64,000 bases of DNA from an uncultured Alphaproteobacteria bacterium (GCA_902571865.1 CACGDO010000004.1:20260-84259), one strand, 5' to 3'; numbered from the stretch's first letter, positions 32,264 to 47,963 are shown. A program made the numbers and translations. Notes: generated by a model not told the origin, from the sequence alone.

Positions 32264-32743
32264 TTAAATTTTATATTCGAAGTTCTGGGTTGTAGGGTTA
32301 ATCTTTATTAATCTGGCACCATTTCGTATGTGATAATGTGTTGCCACAGGCGTTAAAGGGGAAAGGGTAATAATACTTTCAAATTGATCTTTTGATTTAA
32401 TATAGTTTTGTAATTCCTTCATTATTTTCTTTCCAGCACCTTTTTTAAAAGACCAAACTGTATACGCAATAGGGATGGAAGCTTCATCTTCCTTTACACT
32501 CATTAAATCCATTTCTTTAATTGTTGCAGGAATTTCATTTGTAAAAGCAAAACAGGCAATACCTTCAATATCATCTTTATATTTGAGGCCAAAAATTTTT
32601 CTTCCTTTTGATGTACGAAAATCATTATCCAGTTCTGGGCGCACTGGATCATCAGATGGATTAACACCATCTAGTTCAACTAGCTCCGTTTTTTTGATCC
32701 AACTAAAGAAATCAAACTCGTATTTGTATCTGCCAATTTTCAT
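32264..32743 (-). CDS. Hypothetical protein, GNAT-like / malonyl-CoA-decarboxylase-like fold, resembling marine phage proteins
   Basis: DDPVRPEL, AYTVWS..KGAGKKIM (acyl-CoA loop-like), ITLSP, A..YH.RNG. Confidence 0.5.
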   Translation of the reverse strand: MKIGRYKYEFDFFSWIKKTELVELDGVNPSDDPVRPELDNDFRTSKGRKIFGLKYKDDIEGIACFAFTNEIPATIKEMDLMSVKEDEASIPIAYTVWSFKKGAGKKIMKELQNYIKSKDQFESIITLSPLTPVATHYHIRNGARLIKINPTTQNFEYKI

Positions 32744-32862: not shown

Positions 32863-34176
32863 ATGTCTTCAAAATCATCTATTCAAAATATTTTTAAATT
32901 ATCTATCCCTATTTTCTTTGCAAATTTAGTCATTCCTTTTGTGGCTATTGTTGATACGGGTTTAATGGGTAATCTTGATAATGCTAGTTACTTAGTTGCT
33001 ACCAGTATTGCGGCAAGTGTCTTTTCCATTCTTTTTGGGAGTTTTGGTTTTTTACGATCAGGTACGGTTGGAATGATCGCTCAAGCAGATGGATCTAAAG
33101 ATTATGAAGAAATAATAAATATTTTTTTACGTAATATTTTTTTTGTTATTATTATTTCCCTCTTATTAATTATTCTTCAAACATACATATATAAATTTTC
33201 CTTATCTATTTTTGAATTATCACAAGAAACAAGACTTTATTTTAACGATTATTTTACCTTTCGTATTTACTCCTCTTTTGGTGAGCTAACGATTTTTGTG
33301 ATCACAGGACTATTTATTGGTTTACAAAAAACAAAAACATCCAGTCTTATTGTTGGGTTTTATTCTGTTGCAAATATAATTTTAAGCTTAGTCTTTGTTT
33401 TATATTTTAATTTAAATGTTTTAGGTGTTGCCTTAGGCACACTCGTCGCTTCAACACTGACAACAATAATCTTTTTATTTTATACATTTTATGATCTAAA
33501 CATGATGACCAAATTAGAATTTAATTCAAAAAAAATTTTTAATCTTAGTAAAGTAAAAAATATTTTTAATATTAATCTTAATATATTTATCCGATCTCTT
33601 CTTCTTGCTTTTGCCTTTTTATATTTTACCTATCTTGGTAATTCTATCAGTGAAGAAACAGTAGCAGCAAATACCATTTTGCTAAATTTTATAATGTTAT
33701 CAGCCTATGTTCTTGATGCTTATGCCTTTTCTACCGAAGGTATCGTTGGATATTCTATTGGTTCAAAAAATTTAAATTTATTAAAGGATGTTGTTAAAAA
33801 TTCTTTCATCTTAAGTACGGCAACAGGTTTAATAATATGCATCATTTTTTTCTTTAGTAAAAATTATTATATTATGATGATGACAGATTTACCTGACATC
33901 CGAGAGATTAGTTTTTCTTTTTCTTATTGGGTAATCATCATTCCTTTTGCAGCGTCTTTTTGTTTTCAATTTGATGGTATTTTTGTTGGCGCATCCCAAA
34001 CCACAGAACTGCGAAATGCCATGATTGCATCTGTTGCAATATATATCGTCCTTTCTTTCTTTTTGATCTCAAGTTTTGGAAATACAGGCTTATGGTTATC
34101 TCTCTGCATTTTCTTTATAGCAAGAGCACTCACTTTGTTTGTTTATATGCCTAGAATTTATCGTCGTATTTCGTAA
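32863..34176 (+). CDS. dinF: MATE family efflux transporter (DinF-like)
   Basis: P...AN...P....VDT...G, FGFLRSGT.G, FDGIFVGA....LRNAM; about 12 TM segments. Confidence 0.85.
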   Translation: MSSKSSIQNIFKLSIPIFFANLVIPFVAIVDTGLMGNLDNASYLVATSIAASVFSILFGSFGFLRSGTVGMIAQADGSKDYEEIINIFLRNIFFVIIISLLLIILQTYIYKFSLSIFELSQETRLYFNDYFTFRIYSSFGELTIFVITGLFIGLQKTKTSSLIVGFYSVANIILSLVFVLYFNLNVLGVALGTLVASTLTTIIFLFYTFYDLNMMTKLEFNSKKIFNLSKVKNIFNINLNIFIRSLLLAFAFLYFTYLGNSISEETVAANTILLNFIMLSAYVLDAYAFSTEGIVGYSIGSKNLNLLKDVVKNSFILSTATGLIICIIFFFSKNYYIMMMTDLPDIREISFSFSYWVIIIPFAASFCFQFDGIFVGASQTTELRNAMIASVAIYIVLSFFLISSFGNTGLWLSLCIFFIARALTLFVYMPRIYRRIS

Positions 34177-34311
34177 CATCATTAAATTTTTTTGAAATTT
34201 TTATTTCTATTTGTAAAAATAAAATCACTGTAAATGAAAAATAGTAATGACCCATTTTGGGGCATTTGCTACTATAAAATTCCTTTTTTTCTGATATTTC
34301 CCTGTATTTAA

Positions 34312-34346
34312 ACAAGGTTCGGTCCCAACCCTTGTAAAAAAAGACC
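34312..34346 (+). promoter_or_regulatory. Candidate preQ1 class I-like riboswitch aptamer (H-type pseudoknot) in the tpsA1 leader
   Basis: P1 ACAAGG (34312-17) / CCTTGT (34330-35); loop starts TTC and ends with an unpaired C (34329); A7 tract 34336-42; GACC (34343-46) pairs with loop GGTC (34321-24); 16 nt to ATG 34363. Confidence 0.6.
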
Positions 34347-34362
34347 TCGTAAATATTATACT

Positions 34363-37300
34363 ATGAGAGTCTTTGTTATTATATTTTGTTGTTTTTTTTA
34401 TTCATGTCTTTTGTGGGCTGAACTACCAAGTGGTAAAACAACGATTACAGGCGATATTTCAATTAGCTCTGATACTCAAACGATGACCATCCACCAACAA
34501 TCAAACCAGGCTATTATAGAATGGAATAGTTTTAATATCGGGGAAAATAATACTGTTACCTTTCAACAACCATCAACTAGTGCCAGTGCCCTTAATAGAG
34601 TTGTCTCTGGTAATCCTACAACACTAGCCGGTGCTTTAAATGCCAATGGTAAAGTATTTGTGGTGAATGAAAACGGTGTCTACTTTACACCAAATGCAAC
34701 AATCAATGCGCATTCGTTTGCTGCCTCCACGCTGGCTTTATCCAATGATAACTTTCTTAATAATATTTTTTCTTTTAATTCTTCAAATCAATCATCCCTT
34801 CAATCAATTATTAATAAGGGATCGATCACGACATTAGATGGAGGCTTTACTGCTCTACTAGGCGGTGCGATCAATAATGAAGGGACCATTAATGCCAACC
34901 TTGGAAAACTTGGTCTTGGTGCTGGAAAAGAAATCACCTTAGATTTAAGTGGAGACAAATTTTTACAAGTAGCGGTGCCAATAGAATTGGCCACGACAAT
35001 TCTTGATGACGAAAATAACGATGTTAAAGCTCTCATTCAACATGCTGGATCTTCTAATGCTCACACTATAGATATTGATATTGGATCAGCTAAAACAGCA
35101 TTAAACAACGCCGTGTTCATTCCTGGTAATCTTGTTGCCACAACAGCTTCACAAGAAAATGGTGTTATTACTCTTGGAGGAAGTACGGCGCCTATTAATG
35201 TTTTAGGAAACATGACTGCAAAGGAAGGTCTCGTTAATATTGATGCGGGTTTAATCTCTTTTACTGGAAAGGTAGATGTATCAGGTGAAGATTCAGGTAA
35301 TGCTAACTTTGCATCGATAGGTAATATCTATCTTGATGGACCCATTGATGCATCATCAACAGTGGCACAAGGAGGTAATATTACTCTTTCGTCATCAAAT
35401 AAAATTATACAAACATCGAATAGCACTTTAGATGCCTCTGGAACAGAAGGAGGAGACATAAATATTAGTGCAAAAAATTTTGAAACATCAGGAAATCTTA
35501 TAGCTGCAGGTTTGAATGGTGTGGGAGGACGACTTGATATTGAAGCAAGCAGTAAAGCAACCATTTATACATCAAACCTTGATGCGAGTGGTACTAGTAG
35601 AGGTGGTTTAGTAAGAATTGGTGGTGCGTTTCAAGGAAGTAATTATCTAACACGGACAACAGCACAAGAAGAAACATTTATTAATCGTTGGGGAATTCTT
35701 CCAAGTATGAAAAATGCACAATTTGTTTTTATAAACAAAGGCGCTATCATTGACGTTGCTTCTAGTAATGGTGATGCAGGCACAGCAATCATTTGGAGTG
35801 ATCAAGAAACAACGATGCTGGGAAAAATTCTTGCAACAGGAACAATAGGCGGGTCAGTTGAAATATCATCAAAGGATACACTTCGTCATATTGGACTAAA
35901 TGATATTTCAATTAGTGCTGGTGGTCATTTACTTTTAGATCCTAAAAATATTACTATCGGGGATGTTGGCACCTCAAAAAATTGGACATATCAATCAATA
36001 ATAGATAGTTCTGCTAATAGTGCAGTCGACTTGACTAGTTTTAATATAAAATCTGGATGGGCAAATGGTGATCAATTTGGAACGTCCGGTGTAAGATTAA
36101 GCGGAGATGGAACAAAACTTGGTGTACTTTCACGGTATGACGATGGCTATAATGATAGTAGCAATAATTATCCAGCTCTTTATTTATTTCAGTTTAGTGA
36201 CACAAACTTTTCCAATCCAACTCTTAGAGGTATTATAGGTAAAGGTTATGATGCTTTATCAGGTACTCATCCTGGCAGTTTAGATTTTGAATTTCCATCA
36301 AATGATCCTTATCCGGTTCAGTTTGATTTAGATTATGATGGTGATCGTCTGGTATTAGGAGCACCAATACATAACGCCCCCGGTAAAGCGGGTTCTGTCT
36401 ATACTATTAAATTTGACGATACTAATTTTACTAATCCAACCATTGTTGGGCATATCTCCGAGACTCCTAATGCAGCCTACAGTCAAAATTTACAACTATT
36501 AGATTTATTTAACCAGGGATTTGGAGGTGGGATCGCTCTTAATTCTGATGGATCAAGAATGGCAGTAGCAGTGCTTGAAGGTATTCATTTAATTTCATTT
36601 AGTGATACAAATTTTACATCTCCCACAATAACAAGGGTACTCTGGGCTGAGAGTTCAAGTACACCATATTCATATAATTCTACTTTCCCCATAACGAGTA
36701 TTAATTACCATACATTAGGTAATAATATACCATATAATTTGAATTTAACCGATGATGCCACAGCTCTTTCGTTTACAGGTTCTGAAAATAATATAGTTAC
36801 TTTCTCAGATAATAATTTTTCTAATCCTTCACTTGCTCTTCAATTTAAACATGATTGCTCATCGTGTACTGGTAATAATAATATTAGCTTCGATGCCCCT
36901 GCTGGCGCAAATCGTGGCGTTCGTGCTCATGCGTTAAGTGGAGACGGACGCACTCTTTTAATATCATCTAACACAATAGATAATTATATAATTAAAGCGT
37001 ACGGTTTTAGTGATACAAGTTTTTCAAACCCAACATTAATTTCCTCATTTTATGCTTTGAATGGTGCAGATGTACAAAAAATGGCTTTAAGTTCTGATGG
37101 TTCCAACCTTGCTTTAGGATATGGAAGTGGAGGTAGTGTAGAATTATTGACGTCATCTAATTATCTTGATGGTACAGCCTATACTGAAGATCCCAGTAGT
37201 GATATTACAATTAGTGTGGATGCGCTTGAAGCTCTTCTTGATACCAATGTGAATGTGACACTTCAAGCGAACACCGATATTATAATTAACGCGCCCATTA

Positions 37301-38103
37301 CAACAACTGGCACAGGAACATTAAGTCTGCATGCTGGACGTGATGTTGATATTAATAAGTCAATTAGTACTTCTGGCAATTTAGCAATTATTGCCAGTGA
37401 TACTAGTGCTAATAATGTCGTGAGTGCGCAGCGTGATAGCGGAACCGGTGATATTTTAGCGGCCTATGAAAGTGATGGAACAACATCTATAAGTTTATCG
37501 GCAAGTGATTTAGATATAACACTTAATAACGGCAGTGGTGTGAGTAATGCCAGTATGGGGAACATTGAACTTGCTACTATTACGGCTACAACAGGAACAC
37601 TGCAATCAGCAAACTTTAGTGGTTCGGGAGCAGCTGTCAGTGATAAAGCGCACGATGGCACAACGTCAGCAACAGTTGCTACAACGGGATCTGTTTCAGG
37701 ATTAACGTTAGTTGGTAGTGACTTAGCACTTGTAAATACAGCCGCATTCACATCAGCAACTATTGGTGCAGCAAAAGATGCAACAGTGGATTATGATCTC
37801 AGTGGCTATTTAAGTAGCACGATGGATGTGACAGATACAAGTAGTACTGCTATTACCGAGAGTGTCACAGCAGCTATAACTGGGACAAGTTCGAGCAGTT
37901 CTTCAATCGAAAATAACAATGTAGAAGTGACCATTAATGATCAAACAGAAATTGTGGAAAACATGATTGGAGACATTAACAAAATTGTTCCTTTCGTATC
38001 TGTAGACGCTATAGTTGGATCAAATATGTCCCTTCAATTAGCAAGAGAAGCCAACATACAATCTGCTCCAAATACTGAAGGTTTAGGTTTTCAAAGTCTA
38101 TAA
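34363..38103 (+). CDS. Two-partner secretion exoprotein TpsA1 (filamentous haemagglutinin N-domain, beta-helix, 6 FG-GAP-like repeats, degenerate YDG domain)
   Basis: Signal peptide then LPSG; IIEWNSFNIG, ALNRV, NGKVFVVNENG, LLLDPKNITI, NVTLQANTDI, SDKAHDGTT. Confidence 0.88.
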   Translation: MRVFVIIFCCFFYSCLLWAELPSGKTTITGDISISSDTQTMTIHQQSNQAIIEWNSFNIGENNTVTFQQPSTSASALNRVVSGNPTTLAGALNANGKVFVVNENGVYFTPNATINAHSFAASTLALSNDNFLNNIFSFNSSNQSSLQSIINKGSITTLDGGFTALLGGAINNEGTINANLGKLGLGAGKEITLDLSGDKFLQVAVPIELATTILDDENNDVKALIQHAGSSNAHTIDIDIGSAKTALNNAVFIPGNLVATTASQENGVITLGGSTAPINVLGNMTAKEGLVNIDAGLISFTGKVDVSGEDSGNANFASIGNIYLDGPIDASSTVAQGGNITLSSSNKIIQTSNSTLDASGTEGGDINISAKNFETSGNLIAAGLNGVGGRLDIEASSKATIYTSNLDASGTSRGGLVRIGGAFQGSNYLTRTTAQEETFINRWGILPSMKNAQFVFINKGAIIDVASSNGDAGTAIIWSDQETTMLGKILATGTIGGSVEISSKDTLRHIGLNDISISAGGHLLLDPKNITIGDVGTSKNWTYQSIIDSSANSAVDLTSFNIKSGWANGDQFGTSGVRLSGDGTKLGVLSRYDDGYNDSSNNYPALYLFQFSDTNFSNPTLRGIIGKGYDALSGTHPGSLDFEFPSNDPYPVQFDLDYDGDRLVLGAPIHNAPGKAGSVYTIKFDDTNFTNPTIVGHISETPNAAYSQNLQLLDLFNQGFGGGIALNSDGSRMAVAVLEGIHLISFSDTNFTSPTITRVLWAESSSTPYSYNSTFPITSINYHTLGNNIPYNLNLTDDATALSFTGSENNIVTFSDNNFSNPSLALQFKHDCSSCTGNNNISFDAPAGANRGVRAHALSGDGRTLLISSNTIDNYIIKAYGFSDTSFSNPTLISSFYALNGADVQKMALSSDGSNLALGYGSGGSVELLTSSNYLDGTAYTEDPSSDITISVDALEALLDTNVNVTLQANTDIIINAPITTTGTGTLSLHAGRDVDINKSISTSGNLAIIASDTSANNVVSAQRDSGTGDILAAYESDGTTSISLSASDLDITLNNGSGVSNASMGNIELATITATTGTLQSANFSGSGAAVSDKAHDGTTSATVATTGSVSGLTLVGSDLALVNTAAFTSATIGAAKDATVDYDLSGYLSSTMDVTDTSSTAITESVTAAITGTSSSSSSIENNNVEVTINDQTEIVENMIGDINKIVPFVSVDAIVGSNMSLQLAREANIQSAPNTEGLGFQSL
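35962..37160 (+). repeat. Six FG-GAP/propeller-blade-like protein repeats inside tpsA1 (approximate limits)
   Basis: Six copies of L-x-x-D-[GA]-x-x-[LM], five of them followed by F-[SD]-D-x-[NS]-F-[ST]-[NS]-P-[TS]. Confidence 0.7.
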
Positions 38104-38109
38104 GCATTT

Positions 38110-41100
38110 ATGAAAAATGCTTTTATTTTTCTTCTTTCTTTTCTCTTTCTAGAAACACAATTCGTCTACGCTACCTCTCTTCCAAGCGGGGAAAATATTA
38201 TATCCGGGGATATTTCTATCAGTTCATCACAAAATTCCATGACAATTATACAGTCTTCCGAACAATCGATTATTGAATGGACGAGTTTTGATATTGGGGC
38301 ACAAAATAGTTTAACCTTTAATCAACCTTCTGTTAATGCAAGTGCTTTAAACAGAGTTGTCTCAGGAAATCCAACAACGCTTGCTGGTGCATTAAATGCC
38401 AATGGTAAAGTTTTTGTTGTGAATGAAAACGGTGTTTACTTTACACCCACGTCGACAATCAATGCGCATTCCTTTGCTGCATCGACACTGGCTCTTTCAA
38501 ATGATGATTTTCTCAATAATAGATTTTTATTTAAAGCAGATAATGTAAATAATATTTTTTCTTCTATTATTCATAAAGGTTCCATTACTACTTTGGATGG
38601 AGGTTTTACTGCTCTCTTCGGTGGCGCTATTAATAATGAAGGTACGATTAATGCGAACCTTGGTAAAATTGGAATAGGAGCTGGAAAAGAAATTACGTTA
38701 GACTTGAGTGGTGATAAATTTTTACAAGTAAGCGTTCCATTTAGTGAAGCGATAACGTTACTTGATCAAAATGCAGAAGAATTAAATACCATTATTAATC
38801 ATGCAGGAACATCAACGGCAAATAGAATAGATATTGATGTTGGCGCTGCTAAAAATGTTGTTCAGCGCGCTGTCAATATTCCAGGTAATCTTGTTGCAAC
38901 AACTGCCTCACAAAAAAATGGCGTCATTACCCTTGGGGGTGCAGGTGATATTGTCGTTGCAGGAAATTTAACAGCCAAAGAAAATGGTAAAATTAACGCA
39001 GAAGGTAATTTTTTATCTTTTGGTGGTAAAGTTGATGTGTCAGGTGCAAATGCAGGAACAATAAGTTTTAATAGTACAGGTGAAATATCTTTAGGAGGAA
39101 CTCTAAATGCTTCTTCCTCTACTAATGCTGGTGGTAAAATTGATATTCAATCTGATTATAAAATTATTCAAAGTCATGGCAGTGAAATTAATACATCAGG
39201 ACATACTAAGGGTGGTAATATTCTAGTATCAGCACCAAACATTATGTCTTCAGGTTCTATGTCTTCAAATGGCAGTCAACAAGGTGGTTTCATTGATATA
39301 GAGTCTGAAGGTTACATTCGTTTATTATCTACTGATATTAATGTAGTAGGTAATACCCATGGAGGGTTAGTTCGTATTGGGGGAGAATTTCAGGGTAATA
39401 ATAATTTAACAAGAACTACCCAGCAACAAGATGTTTTTATTGATAGGTGGGGTGAAAGACGATCACTTGTTAACGCAAAAACTATTTTAATATCAGATGG
39501 ATCGAATATTAATATTTCCTCTTCTAATGGCGATGCAGGTACAGCAATCATTTGGAGTGATCAAGAAACGACTATGCTTGGTAATATTGATGCAAAAGGC
39601 TTGACTGGTGGTGCTGTTGAAATTTCCTCCAAAGACACATTACGACATGTTGGATTATCAAATGTCAATATATCAGAAGGTGGCCAATTATTACTTGATC
39701 CAAAAAATATTACTGTTGGAACGGGTGTAACGTCTCAAAACTGGGTTCATAAAGGCTTAATCGGAAAGGATTATGCCGTTGTATCATCAACCAATGTCGG
39801 GGAGCCTAAACTAACTAGAGGTGGAAATTTTGGATCTGATATAGCAATCAGTGATGATTCAACTTTAATGGCTGTGGGTGCTAGAGAAGGTGGAGCGCAA
39901 AATAATACAAAAACAGGAGTGGTATATTTGTACCAATTTGATGACGGCAATTTTACTAACGCAACACTGATAGGGCGTATAGGAAAAGGATACACTGGAG
40001 GAAAAAATGTAGATAACTCATATCTTCAAAAGAATGACAAGTTTGGTCGCTCCTTATCTTTTAATAGTACCGGTACTAGATTAGCGGTTGGAGCAACTGG
40101 TGATGATGCAGCACAAAATGGTTCAGAGTCAACTGGTGCGGTTTATTTAATAACTTTTGATGATACTTCTTACTCAGGTGGAGAAATTGTTGGAAGAATA
40201 GGAGGTGGTTACACCGGCTCCAAGAATGTCAATTTGTTTAGACAGGGAGTTACTAAAAAAGGGGTAACTGTAAAATCTTATGATTTATTTGGTTCGAGTG
40301 TAGCATTAGATGGTGATGCAAATGTTCTGGCTGTTGGTCTGAGAGGTGATGATGGATTTAAGCAATATAGTAATAGTTATGACATATCTAAGGCTGGTGG
40401 AGTATTTATAATTGCTTTTGATGATACAGATTTTTCTAATGGTGAAGTTGTATCACGAATTGGTAATGGTTATCAAAATTTAAGCTCTAACAGTAATTGT
40501 GCGAAAACTAATAAGTGTGCTGCAATTGCAAATGATTTTGACACAAATAGTCATACTGATTTAACTCCAAAAAAAGATGATGAATTAGGTTCAGCGGTTT
40601 CTTTTAATCATGATGGCTCTCTTCTTGCTATTGGATCTACAGGAGATAATGGTAAAAATAATAATAAAAATAATTCGGGTTCTGTAAGATTATTTAAGTT
40701 CATGAATAGTGGAAGCATTGTTTCTGCTGCTACAGGTACGCCAACCTATATTGGTTCTATCGGACAAGATTATGATTATCTTGATACAAGTGACTCAAGT
40801 GTTCATGCAGTAACCTTGGCTAATGGAGATCGATTTGGAAACTCTGTTGCATTTGATAAAGATGCTGATCGATTAGCTGTTAGTTACTGGGATCAATCTG
40901 TATCTGGTGAAAGCAAAGTTAGAACAGGAGCTGTAAATTTATATACACTAACTGATAACCTTGCATCCGCAACCTACATTGGAACAATTGGTAATGGTTA
41001 TACTGGATCAAAAGATTTGGATCTTGGAAGTTCATTAGATAGTGGTGATAAGTTTGGTGAAGGTATAGATTTGAATGAAACAGGTAATCGCCTTGTAATG

Positions 41101-43425
41101 TCAGGAATGATGGCAGATGGAAATAATAATTCAAAATCTAATAGTGGTGAAGTTATGCTCATTAAATTTAATGATAATGACTTTACTGGTGGAAGTTTGT
41201 ACGGAAAAGTTGGTTATGGTTATGGAAGTACAGGTGGTAGTTCACTGGATATTGATCTTGATGATGATGATAGGTTTGGTCAAGGAACAGCCTTAGATAG
41301 TGATGGTAATAGAATGGCCATAGTTGCTGCTAGAGTTGATGGTGCAGGTAATAATTCATCAGATTCTGGTGCTGTCTTTTTATTTACCTTTGATGATGAC
41401 TCAGCATTTCAAAATCCAACACATGTAGGAACAATTGGAAAAGGTTACACAGGAACTTATAGTTTAGACTTAGATGATTTAACTTCTGGTGATTATATTT
41501 GGAGAACTGCCTTAGATGGTGATGGGGATAGATTAGTTTTATCACAACTTGATGCAACATCAGGCGGGGTTGATAGTGGCTCAGTGTTCACAATAAAATT
41601 TGATGATACAAATTTTACTAATCCAACACACGTAGGAACAATTGGACATAGTTATAATTCATCTAGTTATGATTTATCAATTGGTACTCTTGGTTCAGGT
41701 GATAGTTTTACTGCATTATCTTTGACTGATGATGGATCACGTCTTGCAGTTGGAGCAATGAAAGATGATGGAGCAAATGGAGGTCATAGTAATGCTGGAG
41801 CAGTTTACTTAATCACATTTGATCAAACAACAAATAGTGATGGAAACCCATCAACTGATTTTAACAACCCAACTCATGTTGGAACAATAGGAATAGATTA
41901 TGCCCCTACAAATACTTTAACAAAGAGTTTGGACTTAGGTGATAACGGAATTGATATATTAAGCAATAATGATCAATTTGGAAACTCTCTTGGTTTAACA
42001 GCAGATGGTAAGATCTTAGCGGTAAGCTCAACTAAAGATGATGGATATAACACAACAAATGATACCAATGATGATTATGGAGCAGTACACTTGTTTACTT
42101 TTAGTGACTCAAATTTCACTGGTGCCACATATGCAGCTTCCATAGGGAATAATTACACTGGAGGTAAAAATTATGATACTTCACGAATATCTGGTTGGGG
42201 GGCGGCTCAAGTTGCTGTTGATGGTGATGGTAATAGAATAGCAATAGGGGATTTTGCTGAAGATGATATTTATTTATTTGGTTTTGAAGATACTTCTCTA
42301 ACTGGTGCAAGTTTACAATTTACTATTGGTTTTGGTAAAACAGGTACGAATGAACTTGATACTTCAACAGCAACTTTAGCAGATGATGACACATTTCCAA
42401 ATTATATTGCTCTAGATGATACTGGTACCTTAATGGTTGCAGGAAGTGCTAAAGGTGATGGTGCAAGCGATGCGGGTGATAATACTGGCGATATATCTTT
42501 ATGGTCAGATACAATTATCCGAGGTAATACGTCTTATACAGATTATGCAAGTGATGATATCGTAATTAATAAAACAGAATTAGAAGAATTTCTGAATAAC
42601 GGTGTTCATGTTACTCTTCAAGCTAATACTGACATCACTATTAGCTCTGCCATTACTGTCACTGGTACAGGTACTCTTAACCTTCATGCAGGAAGAGATG
42701 TAAACATTAATAGCAATATTAACACTGCATCTAATTTAGAAATTATTGCAAGTGATTCAAATGATAATAGTGTTTCTGATAGCGATAGAGATGCGGGAGC
42801 AGGTGATGTAGTAGCTAGTTCAGCAAGTTTGACGGCTGAAGATCTCAATATACAACTTTTAGATGGAGGCACATTAACAAATGCTAGCATGGGAAGTATT
42901 GATCTTTCAACTGTTACGGCTACAACTGGATCTTTAATGTCAGCTAACTTTACAGTGTCAGGTGCTTCGGCAAATGATAAAACATATGATGGAACTACAA
43001 CGGCCACTACAAGTGGTGGCACTATATCGGGTTTAAACTTAACAGGTTCAGATCTTTCTATTAGTTCTTCTGGCAGTTTTGCAGATGCAGATGTTGGTAA
43101 TGATAAAGATGTTACAATAAATTATGAATTATCTGGTTTTACATCAAGTCCAATTACAATAAATGAAAATTCTGGAGCATTAGAAGCAATACCAACAGCA
43201 AATATTTTAGCTGGGGCTTCGACCCCACCTCTTCCAGGTGTAGCACCAGATGAAGAAAAAGAAAAAATTGTAGTAAGGGAAAAAATCAATAAAGATGTTT
43301 TCGATGATGTATCTCGAATAATTTCTTTTATCTCGGTTGATGGTGCGTCTAACGCTGCTTTAATTCAAAATGAATTCATTACGTCTTTTCCTCAGGTAGA
43401 CGCAATTAGTATCCAAAGGTTATAA
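38110..43425 (+). CDS. Two-partner secretion exoprotein TpsA2 (TPS domain, beta-helix, 12 FG-GAP-like repeats, YDG domain)
   Basis: Own signal peptide then LPSG; same TPS motifs as tpsA1; ANDKTYDGTTTAT YDG motif; paralogous C-terminal tail. Confidence 0.88.
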   Translation: MKNAFIFLLSFLFLETQFVYATSLPSGENIISGDISISSSQNSMTIIQSSEQSIIEWTSFDIGAQNSLTFNQPSVNASALNRVVSGNPTTLAGALNANGKVFVVNENGVYFTPTSTINAHSFAASTLALSNDDFLNNRFLFKADNVNNIFSSIIHKGSITTLDGGFTALFGGAINNEGTINANLGKIGIGAGKEITLDLSGDKFLQVSVPFSEAITLLDQNAEELNTIINHAGTSTANRIDIDVGAAKNVVQRAVNIPGNLVATTASQKNGVITLGGAGDIVVAGNLTAKENGKINAEGNFLSFGGKVDVSGANAGTISFNSTGEISLGGTLNASSSTNAGGKIDIQSDYKIIQSHGSEINTSGHTKGGNILVSAPNIMSSGSMSSNGSQQGGFIDIESEGYIRLLSTDINVVGNTHGGLVRIGGEFQGNNNLTRTTQQQDVFIDRWGERRSLVNAKTILISDGSNINISSSNGDAGTAIIWSDQETTMLGNIDAKGLTGGAVEISSKDTLRHVGLSNVNISEGGQLLLDPKNITVGTGVTSQNWVHKGLIGKDYAVVSSTNVGEPKLTRGGNFGSDIAISDDSTLMAVGAREGGAQNNTKTGVVYLYQFDDGNFTNATLIGRIGKGYTGGKNVDNSYLQKNDKFGRSLSFNSTGTRLAVGATGDDAAQNGSESTGAVYLITFDDTSYSGGEIVGRIGGGYTGSKNVNLFRQGVTKKGVTVKSYDLFGSSVALDGDANVLAVGLRGDDGFKQYSNSYDISKAGGVFIIAFDDTDFSNGEVVSRIGNGYQNLSSNSNCAKTNKCAAIANDFDTNSHTDLTPKKDDELGSAVSFNHDGSLLAIGSTGDNGKNNNKNNSGSVRLFKFMNSGSIVSAATGTPTYIGSIGQDYDYLDTSDSSVHAVTLANGDRFGNSVAFDKDADRLAVSYWDQSVSGESKVRTGAVNLYTLTDNLASATYIGTIGNGYTGSKDLDLGSSLDSGDKFGEGIDLNETGNRLVMSGMMADGNNNSKSNSGEVMLIKFNDNDFTGGSLYGKVGYGYGSTGGSSLDIDLDDDDRFGQGTALDSDGNRMAIVAARVDGAGNNSSDSGAVFLFTFDDDSAFQNPTHVGTIGKGYTGTYSLDLDDLTSGDYIWRTALDGDGDRLVLSQLDATSGGVDSGSVFTIKFDDTNFTNPTHVGTIGHSYNSSSYDLSIGTLGSGDSFTALSLTDDGSRLAVGAMKDDGANGGHSNAGAVYLITFDQTTNSDGNPSTDFNNPTHVGTIGIDYAPTNTLTKSLDLGDNGIDILSNNDQFGNSLGLTADGKILAVSSTKDDGYNTTNDTNDDYGAVHLFTFSDSNFTGATYAASIGNNYTGGKNYDTSRISGWGAAQVAVDGDGNRIAIGDFAEDDIYLFGFEDTSLTGASLQFTIGFGKTGTNELDTSTATLADDDTFPNYIALDDTGTLMVAGSAKGDGASDAGDNTGDISLWSDTIIRGNTSYTDYASDDIVINKTELEEFLNNGVHVTLQANTDITISSAITVTGTGTLNLHAGRDVNINSNINTASNLEIIASDSNDNSVSDSDRDAGAGDVVASSASLTAEDLNIQLLDGGTLTNASMGSIDLSTVTATTGSLMSANFTVSGASANDKTYDGTTTATTSGGTISGLNLTGSDLSISSSGSFADADVGNDKDVTINYELSGFTSSPITINENSGALEAIPTANILAGASTPPLPGVAPDEEKEKIVVREKINKDVFDDVSRIISFISVDGASNAALIQNEFITSFPQVDAISIQRL
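39721..42510 (+). repeat. Twelve FG-GAP/propeller-blade-like protein repeats inside tpsA2 (approximate limits)
   Basis: Twelve units, consensus D-x-FG-x-S-x-AL-x-x-DG-x-RLAVGA-x-x-DDG...GAVYL-x-x-F-x-D-x-x-F...G-x-IG-x-x-Y. Confidence 0.75.
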
Positions 43426-45108
43426 ATGAGATATTTTTTATCTTTTATCTTTTTTATCTCTACTTCATTTATGACATATCCTGTTTTTACTAATACTGGT
43501 AATTATATTGTTTATGAAACAGGTTTAGTTATTCCACCTGGTGCAGAAAATATTTCATTTAATTTTGTTGGTATTGAAATTGAAAATGAAATTGAAGAAA
43601 TGATTGAGCTTCGTAAAAATTTATTTAAATCAAAAATTTTTAAAACAATAACATTAAAAGATTTTTATAATTTATTGATTGCTTTAGAACAACTGTATGT
43701 TTTAAATGGATATTTTTTAACGCGTTTTATTGTTCCACCTCAAACAATTGAACAAAATACTAAGGTAAAAGCCATTGTTTTCCCTGGTAAAATTGAAACA
43801 ATTGATTACTCACAACTAGATAAACGTATTTCTAAACCAATTAAAAAATATTTTAAAAAACTTGTTGGTATTAAAGGATTAGAATATCCCGTCATTGAAA
43901 AATCGATCATTAAATCACGAGAACTACCAGGTGTTGAATTAGAAACAACAATTAAGGCAGGAGAGGAGCCTGGAACTTCTTCATTGCAATTGAACGCTGA
44001 ACATAAATTAGTAAATGGTTATTTTACTTATTCAAATGGATTATCAGAAACAGCAGGAAAAGATCAGTTTACTTCGTATGTTAGTCTTAATAGTCCATTT
44101 GGTTATGGAGAAAATATTTATGCAGCATACGTCTTAGATCCTGAAAACAGTGTTAATGTTCCAATAGATGATACTGAAATAATTAAACGAACAGATTTTC
44201 GAGAAGCATATCTTGTTGGTGGTAAACTTCCAATTTTTGCCTCAGACTTTTCCGTTTTTGGTGCTGTTAATGAATCTTATTCAGAACCTAACGGACTAGA
44301 AAAAAAGGGGGAATTCAAACAAATCAACTTTGGTCTTGAATATCAAATAAAAAATACAAGGCTTATAAAAAATAATCTTTCATTAGATTGGCAATGGATT
44401 AAAGAAAGAGAATATTCAATACTACCTAACATCACAGAAGATAACTTTTACGATGAGTACAATGCTCTAGAGTTAAAATATACAACTACTAACTTATCTT
44501 TTTTAGATTCTTTCTCGCTTAAAGGCAGCTCAGCTTTAAAGTTTGGAACTCCTATCTATACAAATAAAACATCAGATACAAAAACATTATCCCGTGTTGG
44601 TTCCACTTTAAATTTTATAAAATGGAATAGTGATATTAATTTGAATAGGCAAATATTTAGAGACTATTTATTGAACACACGTTTTGTTTTTCAAAAACTT
44701 GTTAGCGATAGAGGTTTAATTAATTCAGAACAAATAAATATAACAGGACCAGGCCAAATGTCTGGTTATGAATCAGGTAATATGTCTGGTGATCAAGGCT
44801 TCTTTCTGCGAACAGAATTGAGCAGACCTTTTTATCCTTTTTTAGAAGGAGAAGAAGATAAAAGGGAAGAGTCTATACGTATTGAGCCGTATATCCATCT
44901 TGGTGTTGGTGCTACCTACTATAAACGACCAGCCTCAGGTGAGTTTAGTCGAACAGAAGTGGCAAGTGGAGGGTACGGTGTTAAATTTAAAATTCCTCTT
45001 AATTCTAATAGTCTAGATATTAATTTCGAAGTAGCAGAAGCGGATAAAAGTGTTGAGGGAACTACTTCCAGACCGGTGTATTTACTCAATGCCACATTTT
45101 CATTCTAA
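43426..45108 (+). CDS. TpsB outer-membrane transporter (ShlB/FhaC/HecB family)
   Basis: POTRA motifs (LY...GYFLTR..VPPQ, LPGV), N.G....G, LNSPFGYGE, degenerate VRGY loop (MSGYESG...GDQG), terminal aromatic FSF. Confidence 0.85.
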   Translation: MRYFLSFIFFISTSFMTYPVFTNTGNYIVYETGLVIPPGAENISFNFVGIEIENEIEEMIELRKNLFKSKIFKTITLKDFYNLLIALEQLYVLNGYFLTRFIVPPQTIEQNTKVKAIVFPGKIETIDYSQLDKRISKPIKKYFKKLVGIKGLEYPVIEKSIIKSRELPGVELETTIKAGEEPGTSSLQLNAEHKLVNGYFTYSNGLSETAGKDQFTSYVSLNSPFGYGENIYAAYVLDPENSVNVPIDDTEIIKRTDFREAYLVGGKLPIFASDFSVFGAVNESYSEPNGLEKKGEFKQINFGLEYQIKNTRLIKNNLSLDWQWIKEREYSILPNITEDNFYDEYNALELKYTTTNLSFLDSFSLKGSSALKFGTPIYTNKTSDTKTLSRVGSTLNFIKWNSDINLNRQIFRDYLLNTRFVFQKLVSDRGLINSEQINITGPGQMSGYESGNMSGDQGFFLRTELSRPFYPFLEGEEDKREESIRIEPYIHLGVGATYYKRPASGEFSRTEVASGGYGVKFKIPLNSNSLDINFEVAEADKSVEGTTSRPVYLLNATFSF

Positions 45109-45114
45109 AAATTT

Positions 45115-46434
45115 ATGATAAACACATCTCATATAATGAAAATTTTTACGATAATTATCCTCAAGATCATATTTTTTTACTCAACCTTTGTGAATGCAGA
45201 AGTAAAAATTGCAGCCCTTTACGCAGAAAGTGGTCCTGTTAGTGAAATTGCTGAAGCAATTGCAGAAGCAAAAAGAGTTGCTGTAGAAACAATTAATGCG
45301 GACGGTATTGGTATAGTAGGAAGAGGTCTTATATCAATTGATACTATTGATACAGGATGTGATCCTACAAAAACAGAAGATAGTTTAAATGCCTATTTAA
45401 AAAATAATGATCCAGAAATCCTTTTAGGACCAACGTGTTCAACAAGTGCTGTTAAAGTTATTGAACAGGCAACTATTCCAGACAATATTTTAACGATTTC
45501 TTCTTCTGCTAGTTACCCGTTACTTTCAACAATTGAAGATAATGATTTATTTTTTAGAACTATTCCTTCTGATATTCAACAATCAACATCCATTGCTAAT
45601 TATCTACTATCTAAAAACATAAGAGAAATAATTCTTCTCTACGGTGATGATAATTATAATTCTACACTGGCTCAAAATTTTTTAAAAGTTTTCACCGAAC
45701 AAGAAGGTATAGTGTTATTTAATACTTTGCTAACAGATAAAACACTGATCAATCAAAACTTCATTAATACATTTGTTGATATTGCTATAGACAATAATCA
45801 ACCTGGTTTAGTCATGTTTCTTCACGGAAATGAACGAACAGTTAATTTACTAGAACAATTTGTAAATACTGTTTTGACTAGATTACAAGAACTAGAAACT
45901 TCAGGTATTTTTAAACATCATTATGGTTCTGATAGTATGCTGACGAATGACGTTAAGGATTTAATCTATTCCTATATTCCTATTCAGTTAAATAAAAATA
46001 CAACTATTGTTGCCCAAGCAACTTCACAAAGTTCAGAAGAGTTTCAAACATACGCAAATATAATGTTGAACGCAGGTGTTGATCCAAATTCTCCTTATTC
46101 CGCTATTAGTTTTGATACAATGATGTTAGCAGCTTTGGCAATACAGCATCAGACACATAATAATATTTCTAAGAAAGACTTATCAAAAAGTTTAGTTAGT
46201 GTTGCTAACCCACCAGGAATTAAAATGGGACCTGGAAGTTGGGAAGCTGCTAGAGCTTTACTTCTCCGCGGTGTTGAAATTAATTATGAGGGTGTTTCTG
46301 GATCACTAGATTTTGATATTAACGGTGATGTGGAGGGCATGTATTCTTTAAACCAAGTCACGGAAGATAATCTTTGGTCAGTTGAGCGTTTAGAAAAACT
46401 TCACCCTTTTGAGCCTAGAATTATAATTGATTAA
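45115..46434 (+). CDS. Type 1 periplasmic (branched-chain amino acid-like) ABC substrate-binding protein, orphan
   Basis: Signal peptide, VKIAAL....GP, DTGCDP, GPTCS, FFRTIPSD..Q, INYEGVSG..DFD.NGDV. Confidence 0.8.
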   Translation: MINTSHIMKIFTIIILKIIFFYSTFVNAEVKIAALYAESGPVSEIAEAIAEAKRVAVETINADGIGIVGRGLISIDTIDTGCDPTKTEDSLNAYLKNNDPEILLGPTCSTSAVKVIEQATIPDNILTISSSASYPLLSTIEDNDLFFRTIPSDIQQSTSIANYLLSKNIREIILLYGDDNYNSTLAQNFLKVFTEQEGIVLFNTLLTDKTLINQNFINTFVDIAIDNNQPGLVMFLHGNERTVNLLEQFVNTVLTRLQELETSGIFKHHYGSDSMLTNDVKDLIYSYIPIQLNKNTTIVAQATSQSSEEFQTYANIMLNAGVDPNSPYSAISFDTMMLAALAIQHQTHNNISKKDLSKSLVSVANPPGIKMGPGSWEAARALLLRGVEINYEGVSGSLDFDINGDVEGMYSLNQVTEDNLWSVERLEKLHPFEPRIIID

Positions 46435-46442
46435 GAAATTAA

Positions 46443-46808
46443 TTATTTTTTAATTTTTTCCCATTCTGCCATTCCGCCAGTAATATTTTTAACGTTTTTA
46501 ATACCCATATCCTGCATTGTTTTAGTGGCTAAAGTTCCTTGTCCCCCGACACCACAAAATACAACATATTCTTTATCTGGGTTGTTTTTAAAAAATTCAT
46601 TTTCTAAAGGACTGCCCTCAGCTAAATAAAATTCAAGAAAAGCCTTGTCCAAATGCATTGCATTTCCAATAGTTTCTTTTTCAAAACTCTCTTTATCTCT
46701 AACATCAATAAATTGTACATTTGGATTATTAAGTTTTTCTTTTGCTTCTGATGCAGAAATATTTTCAATTTCATTTTTAATACTCATTAAGTCTTCAAAT
46801 TTTTTCAT
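46443..46808 (-). CDS. Rhodanese-like domain protein
   Basis: IDVRD, FCGVGGQG active loop, GGMAEW. Confidence 0.85.
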   Translation of the reverse strand: MKKFEDLMSIKNEIENISASEAKEKLNNPNVQFIDVRDKESFEKETIGNAMHLDKAFLEFYLAEGSPLENEFFKNNPDKEYVVFCGVGGQGTLATKTMQDMGIKNVKNITGGMAEWEKIKK

Positions 46809-46892: not shown

Positions 46893-47963
46893 TTAATTCA
46901 GTTTATCTTTACGGTAATTAGATCGTATTTCGTCAAGAAGGATTGATTTTGACTTATCTTTTACATGCCAAAAATCCCAGCCATTACAGCTTGGCAGTCC
47001 TTGTATTTTTGCTCCCATTTGATGAATAGAACCTGATAAATCTTTTATTTTAAGTGTTCCATCAATACTAACTGTTGCTTTAAAGCGTTCTTTTTTATCT
47101 GTTAATACAGCACCTGGCGGTATAATTCCTTGCTCGACTAATTCACCAAAAGGAACCTTCGGTAATTCCTTTCTGCTCTTTGCAATAGTGACAACATCTT
47201 CTTTCAATACTTTTGTATTCTTTAATCGTTCTTTTGAAAGTTTAACGTAATCTTTATCTTTTTCTATACCAATAAAGTTACGTTGTAATTTTTTTGCAAC
47301 AACAGCTGTTGTCCCACTTCCTGAAAATGGATCAAGAACAAGATCACCTTTGTTTGTCGATGCTAGAAGAATTCGGTAGAGGAGAGCTTCTGGTTTTTGC
47401 GTTGGGTGTGATCGTTGATTGTTATCTTTTCGTAATCGTTCTTTGCCCGAACAAATAGGAATATACCAGTCACTACGCATTTGTTTTCCTTCATTTAGTT
47501 CTTTGAGATTTTGATAGTTGAATGTGTATTTCGCTTCTCTTGATGTTGTGCACCATAAAAGTGTTTCATGGGCATTTGTAAAACGTGTACCACGAAAATT
47601 TGGCATAGGATTTGTTTTATGCCAAATGATATCATTTAAAATCCATAATCCTTCATCTTGAATTGTGGATCCTACACGTAAAATATTATGATAACTTCCA
47701 ATGACCCAAAGCGCTCCACCTTTTTTTAAAACACGTTTACATTCACTAAGCCATGCATTGGTAAATTGATCATATTCTTTATAGGTATTAAATTTATCCC
47801 AATCTTGTGTAACAGCTTCGACCGTTGTTTGATCAGGTCTGTATAATGTATCCTTTAGTTGAAGATTATAGGGTGGATCAGCAAAAACAAGATCAACCGA
47901 ATGATCTTTTAATTTTTTCATTTCCTTAATGGAATCTCCCAAAATAATTTGATTTTTCTTCAT
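46893..47963 (-). CDS. ccrM: Cell-cycle-regulated GANTC adenine methyltransferase CcrM
   Basis: [44 protein letters not shown]-terminal GSIH...CNGWDFWH. Confidence 0.95.

Follow-up and report, generated by a model that had tools for sequence, protein, structure and literature searches.

Two-partner secretion (TPS, type Vb), which pairs an exoprotein (TpsA) with an outer-membrane transporter (TpsB), is known mostly from pathogens. EtpA, HxuA and HMW1 belong to a TPS subfamily without the FHA-type NPNL hairpin, and the NPNG turn of the TPS domain is described as highly conserved and crucial for folding and secretion (PMC5422565, in the part consulted). The accessory genes of TPS loci named in that part are cdiI, cdiO, cdiC, glycosyltransferase genes and HxuC, with no binding protein among them. 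Here we analysed a 64,000-nt stretch of DNA (the window) from an uncultured Alphaproteobacteria bacterium (GCA_902571865.1 CACGDO010000004.1:20260-84259), probably of the AEGEAN-169/HIMB59 kind, which carries a cassette of two tpsA genes, one tpsB gene and a gene for a periplasmic binding protein (PBP). We put at about one in two the probability that this is a type Vb cassette in which the PBP is the dedicated periplasmic partner of the TpsA C-terminal tail. A literature search judged by title and abstract found no paper on a TPS cassette with a binding protein. TPS terms are absent from the main texts of PMC10308909, PMC10734472 and PMC13712998, as are "secretion", "adhes" and "hemagglutinin" from the main text of PMC10734472.

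The cassette takes up 12 kb of a 1.63-Mb assembly (23 contigs, 92% complete) and consists of four intact genes on one strand, with intergenic gaps of 6, 0 and 6 nt (Table 1). Pfam and NCBIfam identified the products as two TpsA paralogues, one TpsB and a Liv-type PBP. A preliminary description of this DNA, made by a model from the sequence alone, had read the locus as a four-gene operon tpsA1-tpsA2-tpsB-SBP (substrate-binding protein) with the same gaps; the exact coordinates and the Pfam identities confirm it. Both exoproteins exceed the TPS-domain threshold for a type Vb exoprotein, with PF05860 scores of 94.4 bits for TpsA1 and 80.6 bits for TpsA2 (cut-off 33.5) and TIGR01901 scores of 72.2 and 67.7 bits (cut-off 29.1), and the closest solved sequences to the TPS domain are EtpA (1.8e-36), HxuA (8.2e-29) and HMW1 (4.9e-28). 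The scores of TpsB, 64.7 bits for PF03865 (cut-off 22.7) and 24.9 bits for PF08479 (cut-off 24), likewise place it in type Vb. No TPS domain was found elsewhere in the assembly. Pfam detected no toxin domain or glycosyltransferase in the four cassette proteins and no glycosyltransferase in 14 flanking ORFs; the cassette proteins contain no VENN motif, no small ORF that could be an immunity gene lies behind either tpsA (gaps of 6 and 0 nt), and no flanking ORF matches the TonB-receptor family. By the Pfam and motif scans the locus is thus neither a contact-dependent inhibition (CDI) locus nor HMW1ABC, as the preliminary description had also concluded.

The binding protein and the secretion genes occur together without exception. 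Among the 105 species-level genomes of the genus, 31 encode TpsB and exactly the same 31 encode the PBP, each time directly downstream with a fixed 6-nt spacing, which upholds the placing of the fourth gene in the operon. Order-wide the PBP was detected in 31 of 187 genomes, all of one genus; it was not found in the 74 cassette-free genomes of the genus, in 11 genomes from seven other genera of the family or in 71 genomes of the sister family. Many genomes of the order are 53-90% complete, so these absences mean "not found". The relatives are marine single-cell genomes. A metagenome contig (L089) from a more distant clade, at 51-58% identity, has the same gene order, with TpsA at 53%, TpsB at 55% and the PBP at 54% identity. 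No such PBP lies within ~9 kb of the TpsB gene at 20 other alphaproteobacterial loci, and no TpsA or TpsB gene is near the eight closest PBP relatives examined outside the clade, one of which adjoins LivH/M/G/F-type genes and another (L155) trpBA. The PBP is under strong constraint (dN/dS 0.05-0.08); the corresponding range for TpsB is 0.04-0.13.

The number of exoprotein genes varies. Among 29 further cassette loci, a single tpsA with the MatE-family transporter gene directly upstream was seen in 12 and a single tpsA without MatE in view in 2; two tpsA genes directly behind MatE in 6, two behind the end of a third tpsA in 4, and two with the upstream context unresolved in 3; in the remaining 2 the number was cut by contig ends. 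The cassette therefore carries 1 to 3 tpsA genes, of which the TpsA2 type, next to tpsB, is universal. A tblastn search placed the cassette between MatE and the CcrM-like methyltransferase gene (CcrM) in seven relatives. Independent single-cell assemblies show the order MatE / tpsA(n)-tpsB-PBP / CcrM again, and a false join at 34.2 or 46.4 kb, for which the preliminary description had allowed, is thereby ruled out.

All 51 collected TpsA C-termini, from the three paralogue types and the divergent clade, have a common tail preceded by a low-complexity linker. It bears the motif F-[V/I]-S-V-D ~28-32 residues from the end and terminates in [I/F/L]-Q-[S/R]-L (51/51). Thirteen columns are invariant, though the tails of TpsA1 and TpsA2 are only 22% identical; in TpsA2 the last 60 aa are the most conserved part of the protein, with a mean pairwise identity of 0.96 among 16 orthologues. 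The tail was not seen among 79 TpsAs outside the clade. A different, highly conserved tail, helical-looking and also ending in Leu, was observed in other alphaproteobacterial TpsAs of ~1180-1240 aa (P0258, P0262-P0268 and P0273, one named Ruegeria). TpsAs may more widely possess C-terminal tails, a feature so far unstudied.

The complex of the mature PBP (own alignment A4) with the 72-aa tail (own alignment A3) was predicted in three runs, together with three controls. The runs scored 0.62, 0.79 and 0.74 (median 0.74), and the best of the three controls 0.00. A median of 0.74 is reached by 116 of 157 solved complexes and by 2 of 215 mismatched pairs, a mark that is rough here since own alignments were used. 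At least 66% of the contacts are common to the runs, which place tail residues 35-53, SFISVD included, against the inter-lobe cleft of the PBP, including its clade-specific AQATSQS and NSPY stretches. Among the predicted interface residues of the PBP, 28 of 43 are invariant in 16 clade members, vs 106 of the 368 others (Fisher p 4e-6), and 10 of 43 are clade-specific invariants, vs 41 of 368 (p 0.03). The prediction supports binding of the tail by the PBP without demonstrating it. The terminal Leu of TpsA was also considered as the ligand of a Leu-binding-type PBP and was rejected, as the predicted interface is formed by residues 35-53 and not by the C-terminus.

Profile comparison with the PDB matched the N-lobe of the PBP to LivK (9e-16) and LivJ, the disulfide Cys pair included. 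An AlphaFold2 (AF2) model from a 46-sequence alignment has a pLDDT (predicted local distance difference test) of 90.3 and a pTM (predicted template-modelling score) of 0.86. Foldseek aligned this model to LivJ/LivK with target-normalised TM scores of 0.70-0.78 (1z15 0.77, 2lbp 0.78), and the next matches were the ectodomains of class C G-protein-coupled receptors (GPCRs) and of the natriuretic-peptide receptor; the PBP accordingly has the type I periplasmic binding fold. In the ESM Atlas it matched generic ABC binding-protein clusters only. The close family has ~60 members, made up of the genus clade and the 51-58% clade. Word-indexed searches showed no relative between 51% and ~30% identity, and isolation of the PBP in sequence space was considered; it was discarded after a six-frame search of 301 alphaproteobacterial genomes, which found full-length relatives at ~30% identity (E 1e-44 to 1e-70). 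Set against 30 canonical relatives, the clade shows four insertions (223-226, 251-261, 287-289 and 429-439, the last a C-terminal extension), and near-invariant canonical residues, several of them charged, are replaced (e.g. E to F216, H to L206, K to T210). The cleft keeps the near-invariant canonical residues S109, D153, Q156, Y181 and D273. At every locus seen, the cassette is without permease and ATPase genes; permease genes lie on other contigs, or on the same contig outside the window, and the only other Peripla_BP_6 protein of the genome is on contig 9, beside BPD_transp_2 permeases. Judged by these sequence features, the PBP is a co-opted descendant of a Liv-type ABC-transporter binding protein whose transporter genes have been lost.

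In the mechanism that we propose, Sec would carry the TpsAs across the inner membrane and the one shared TpsB across the outer one, and the TpsAs would fold outside into a beta-helix carrying a variable FG-GAP propeller. The most likely role of the PBP would be that of a dedicated partner whose ligand cleft receives the invariant SFISVD segment of the tail; it would then either chaperone the TpsA C-terminus or hold it in the periplasm. In the latter case the exoprotein would stay on the cell, because a folded 45-kDa PBP cannot pass the pore. We tentatively extend this to a PBP repurposed as a third type Vb component, which would clamp the tail and act as a stopper that tethers TpsA via TpsB; an amino-acid-like ligand could then release TpsA.

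Several points weigh against a tail-binding PBP. The complex score is the model's own confidence, roughly calibrated for own alignments, and the tail has a pLDDT of 46-48 in the complex, so its fold is uncertain. The controls did not include the tail paired with a canonical Liv-type binding protein. The cleft of a binding protein is conserved whatever the ligand, and extended ligands can occupy it; with its retained canonical residues, this one may bind a small amino-acid-like ligand. A first AF2 model of the PBP, built from 11 sequences, had a pLDDT of 55.6 and was too poor for searching. The RNA evidence given below consists of contigs from RNA libraries, in which DNA carry-over is possible.

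The exoproteins could instead capture nutrients on the HxuCBA pattern, with TpsA binding or releasing an amino-acid-like or peptide nutrient that the PBP passes to the one Liv-type importer of the genome. The closeness of the TPS domain to HxuA fits this, as does HxuCBA itself, a three-gene TPS operon with an uptake component as its third gene (PMC5422565, in the part consulted). The canonical cleft residues and the LivK/LivJ-like N-lobe are kept, and a docking partner exists in the permeases on contig 9, so that the PBP may use a distant Liv-type transporter. However, the cassette is accompanied by its own permease or ATPase gene at no locus seen, the replaced near-invariant residues include several charged ones, neither TpsA has a Pfam match to a hydrolase or known ligand-release domain, and the conserved tail and the complex prediction would be left unexplained. 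We regard nutrient capture as possible but doubtful.

Alternatively, the PBP could be a sensor in whose cleft a small ligand competes with the tail, so that TpsA would be released or secreted according to nutrient status. The site predicted for the tail is indeed the canonical ligand cleft, with canonical residues retained, and the fold family includes receptors and regulators, as the GPCR and natriuretic-peptide receptor matches illustrate; but the scheme is purely inferential, and Pfam found no regulator or signalling domain in the four cassette proteins, which makes it unlikely in our judgement. That the PBP gene is an orphan transporter component hitch-hiking in the same island is very improbable: orphan Liv-type binding proteins do occur, as beside trpBA in L155, and the rhodanese neighbour described below indicates that unrelated genes can ride at the site, but the rhodanese gene comes and goes, whereas the PBP co-occurs with TpsB in 31/31 genomes at a fixed spacing, keeps its gene order at ~54% identity, is strongly constrained and was not found in the 74 cassette-free genus genomes or in 82 other genomes of the order.

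TpsA2 contains 12 tandem FG-GAP-type repeats of ~72 aa (10 strong and 2 weak, by a hidden Markov model (HMM) from the protein's own repeats), and TpsA1 ~3 clear FG-GAP-like repeats with several degenerate remnants. The repeat region of TpsA2 is predicted to form a beta-propeller head and is the hypervariable part of the protein: mean pairwise identity among the 16 orthologues is 0.84-0.95 over aa 61-540, 0.52-0.81 over the repeat region (aa 541-1440) and 0.83-0.90 in the four 60-aa blocks of aa 1501-1740. A variable head on a conserved stalk is as expected for an exposed surface protein. TpsA1 orthologues are 96-97% identical. Surface display, for which the preliminary description had suggested adhesion, shielding or substrate capture as possible uses, fits this hypervariable region and two traits of the island given below, namely the autotransporter found there as an alternative and the lack of agreement between island state and flank tree.

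The identity between TpsA1 and TpsA2 is 51% in the first ~780 aa and falls to 34% in the C-terminal part. Their TPS domains (aa 21-283) share 72.5% of residues and 70% of nucleotides. The preliminary description had called these domains nearly identical in protein with differences at synonymous sites: near-identity holds only for a 63-aa core (aa 73-135, 92%), and the synonymous differences are borne out, with differing codons at 85 of 190 identical residues. This level of identity, with differing codons, indicates old paralogues under purifying selection, not recent conversion.

As first noticed in the preliminary description, both TpsAs have NENG in place of NPNG, and alignment with EtpA, HxuA and HMW1 puts it at their NPNG turn. 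NENG is present in 43 of 43 clade members and in none of the 79 next relatives, of which 68 have NPNG and 11 another sequence, with Pro second in 76; it is restricted to the cassette clade. The second-position Pro is also missing in 6 of 13 sampled alphaproteobacterial TpsAs. With their good domain scores, the TpsAs stay in type Vb despite departing from the canonical NPNG, which is not strictly defining.

In Omp85-type transporters of this kind, the Arg of VRGY/F in loop L6 pairs with the Asp of F/GxDxG on strand beta13 (PMC5422565, in the part consulted). The cassette TpsB has lost both and so lacks the type Vb motif pair. Its MSGY loop had been taken for a degenerate one, a view that does not hold: among the 132 nearest full-length TpsB cluster representatives, 122 have Ser at the Arg place, and the beta13 Asp place is Ala in 109 and Asp in 5. 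We observe here a large TpsB subfamily (proteins P0064-P0213) without the salt bridge regarded as a hallmark of Omp85 proteins, lost as a pair; in many TpsBs the Arg-Asp lock is thus dispensable. Across 1.84 billion representatives, one full-length cluster relative of TpsB was found at 55% identity (P0064, whose L6 motif is LSGF), and the other full-length relatives are at ~29% or below.

The preliminary description had further suggested that NENG co-evolved with the MSGY loop. Both variants are present in every clade member, and P0064 has a related loop, but Ser-type loops with Ala at beta13 prevail in the nearest TpsBs, NENG is absent from all 79 relatives outside the clade, and at the 20 alphaproteobacterial TpsB loci sampled, the Ser-type TpsBs of L095 and L096 adjoin NPNG TpsAs in 3 of 3 pairs; NENG and the Ser-type loop are therefore not coupled, and the suggestion is highly unlikely to be right. 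L095 and L096 (G312 and G136; also G433) come from Alphaproteobacteria of another family with genomes of 1.4-1.6 Mb. These have a pair of TpsB genes separated by a few kb, and each TpsB has a Ser-type L6 loop and an NPNG-type TpsA of its own.

The cassette is one of three alternative contents of a replacement island. The flanks are housekeeping genes: on the left purD/C/K/E, an IMPDH-family gene and MatE, on the right the rhodanese gene, CcrM and RNase HII. CcrM is 97-99% identical across the genus loci checked, with one outlier at 78% (G061). MatE directly adjoins CcrM, leaving an empty site, in 3 of 5 cassette-free loci examined. A fourth (L048:5709-8153, G019) has an 814-aa classical autotransporter between the flanks (Autotransporter beta-domain 1.7e-32, Big_5), the passenger at this site being Big_5 Ig-like. 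Full-length or nearly full-length orthologues of the autotransporter (at least 67% identity) were found in 24 genus genomes, with a divergent N-terminal part in 2 more; all 26 genomes lack the TPS cassette. Eight further genomes were checked for position: seven have the autotransporter between MatE and CcrM (L163 and L165-L170 among the sites), and for the eighth only the MatE side was within the stretch examined. The site is thus a replacement island with three states: empty, classical autotransporter, or TPS cassette with 1 to 3 tpsA genes. In a ccrM+rnhB DNA tree of 39 loci (FastTree; support values not considered) the three states are interleaved, and the nearest neighbours of the window carry the autotransporter.

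Exchange of the island is likely to proceed by homologous recombination in the flanks. Site-specific insertion was considered and set aside, as there is no tRNA, no Rfam match and no border-shared repeat of at least 11 nt; foreign origin, considered for the raised G+C content (34-38% vs 26-33%), was likewise set aside, this being explained by a protein composition rich in G/A/S/T/N/D. The MatE gene has divergent allele classes that do not track island state: that of the window is 91-93% identical to those of several cassette-free or autotransporter genomes and 77-81% to those of many cassette-bearing ones, a pattern that hints at recombination breakpoints in the left flank. Only 4 of 29 cassette loci have the rhodanese gene, which accompanies the autotransporter in L163 and L167 as well; it is a passenger that varies independently at this site. 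A 159-aa ORF (32264-32743) that separates MatE from the IMPDH-family gene is without a match in Pfam, yet is conserved across the genus at 93-97% identity.

In 14 seawater metatranscriptome runs, 10-22% of the sampled words were present. Contigs from four of these RNA libraries, each from a different study, contain pieces of all four cassette genes at 90% identity or more, for example 217 nt of tpsA2 with 0 mismatches and 292 nt of tpsA1 with 2; the depth of these contigs does not allow the expression levels of the four genes to be ranked. One RNA-library contig (run X5) fuses position 33418 (MatE) to 42757 (late tpsA2), with 11 other letters between, and may stem from a strain whose island allele differs, or from faulty assembly. 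Scans for promoters and terminators gave matches no more frequent than in shuffled sequences, and the matches to the promoter consensus were weak.

Table 1 Features of the cassette and its flanks; coordinates are counted from the first nucleotide of the window.
Feature	Coordinates	Strand	Evidence or remark
MatE-family transporter gene, left island flank, outside the cassette	32863..34176	+	MatE 9.1e-26
Upstream region of tpsA1, AT-rich, 186 nt	34177..34362	+	Sequence read; likely promoter region
tpsA1, 1246 aa	34363..38103	+	Signal peptide, TPS domain, beta-helix, FG-GAP-like repeats, C-terminal stalk, conserved tail
TPS domain of TpsA1, aa 22-283	34426..35211	+	PF05860 1.4e-26, TIGR01901 2.4e-20
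NENG motif, TpsA1 aa 102-105	34666..34677	+	Occupies the place of the NPNG beta-turn
C-terminal tail of TpsA1, last 72 aa, ends FQSL	37885..38100	+	Tail alignment
tpsA2, 1771 aa	38110..43425	+	TpsA present in every cassette, always adjoining tpsB
TPS domain of TpsA2, aa 25-280	38182..38949	+	PF05860 2.3e-22
FG-GAP-type repeats of TpsA2, aa 562-1465	39793..42504	+	FG-GAP_2 1.1e-22; own-repeat HMM
YDG domain of TpsA2, aa 1613-1676	42946..43137	+	PF18657 1.3e-10
C-terminal tail of TpsA2, last 72 aa, ends IQRL	43207..43422	+	51 C-termini; 13 invariant columns
Tail residues 35-53 (VSRIISFISVDGASNAALI), predicted PBP-cleft segment	43309..43365	+	Interface list; 6 of 13 invariant columns
tpsB, 560 aa, Omp85-type outer-membrane transporter	43426..45108	+	ShlB 1.3e-17, POTRA_2 1.8e-5
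L6 motif MSGY, TpsB aa 445-448	44758..44769	+	Aligned to VRGF of CdiB (6wim); place of VRGY/F
HLGVG, TpsB aa 491-495	44896..44910	+	Place of the beta13 motif F/GxDxG; Asp missing
Type I PBP, 439 aa, signal peptide, no lipobox Cys	45115..46434	+	ANF_receptor 1.3e-27, Peripla_BP_6 4.7e-17
Rhodanese-domain gene, variable neighbour, outside the cassette	46443..46808	-	Rhodanese 4.9e-20
CcrM-like N6/N4 DNA methyltransferase gene with RAMA, right flank	46893..47963	-	N6_N4_Mtase 7.8e-69, RAMA 2.8e-16

An abundant kind of free-living ocean bacterium with a genome of 1.6 Mb thus spends 12 kb on a TPS system tied to a binding protein. If the PBP holds the tail, this would answer how a TpsA stays on the cell in dilute seawater, and would make protein clamping a further function of the Liv-type fold; tethering, if true, would be a new way to anchor and regulate TpsAs and a new job for the binding-protein fold. 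The three-state island offers a natural experiment on attachment versus avoidance of predators and phages.

Of the described systems, HxuCBA of H. influenzae resembles the cassette in combining a TPS pair of the same subfamily with a co-operonic envelope protein of nutrient-uptake type (PMC5422565, in the part consulted). Its third gene, HxuC, encodes a TonB-dependent outer-membrane receptor, whereas that of the cassette encodes a periplasmic type I binding protein; the FG-GAP propeller passenger, the two or three TpsAs per TpsB and NENG further distinguish the cassette. HMW1ABC of H. influenzae and EtpBAC of enterotoxigenic E. coli provide the closest TPS sequences and are three-gene operons with toxin-free, adhesin-type TpsAs, but their third gene encodes a cytoplasmic glycosyltransferase (PMC5422565, same part), of which none was found in the cassette or the 14 flanking ORFs. 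From CdiBAI the cassette differs in having no VENN motif, Pfam toxin domain or downstream immunity ORF.

For FhaB/FhaC of Bordetella, the C-terminal part of the TpsA has been proposed to stay inside and to govern the fate of the exported part (Noel et al. 2012, as listed in PMC5422565, and PMC4542190, in the parts consulted), much as we suggest for the cassette tail. The FhaB prodomain is large and removed by protease, whereas the cassette tail is ~50 aa, with a binding protein encoded beside the pore, and the cassette TpsB is without the L6 Arg / beta13 Asp pair. The PBP is like LivJ/LivK of the HAAT family in its fold, in the N-lobe match with the disulfide Cys pair and in having relatives beside livHMGF-type genes; it is unlike them in its linkage to a TPS pair, its four insertions, its replaced canonical residues and the absence of adjacent transporter genes. 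The replacement flexible genomic islands of HIMB59 (PMC10734472, in the part consulted) likewise hold alternative equivalent cargoes at the same site, with cargo that does not follow the flank tree, but carry phosphate genes, whereas the island described here carries type V surface proteins, either Va or Vb. Set beside these systems, what is newly seen is the clade-specific NENG, the Ser-type L6 subfamily, the 1 to 3 tpsA genes, the autotransporter allele, and the conserved TpsA tail with its predicted docking to the PBP.

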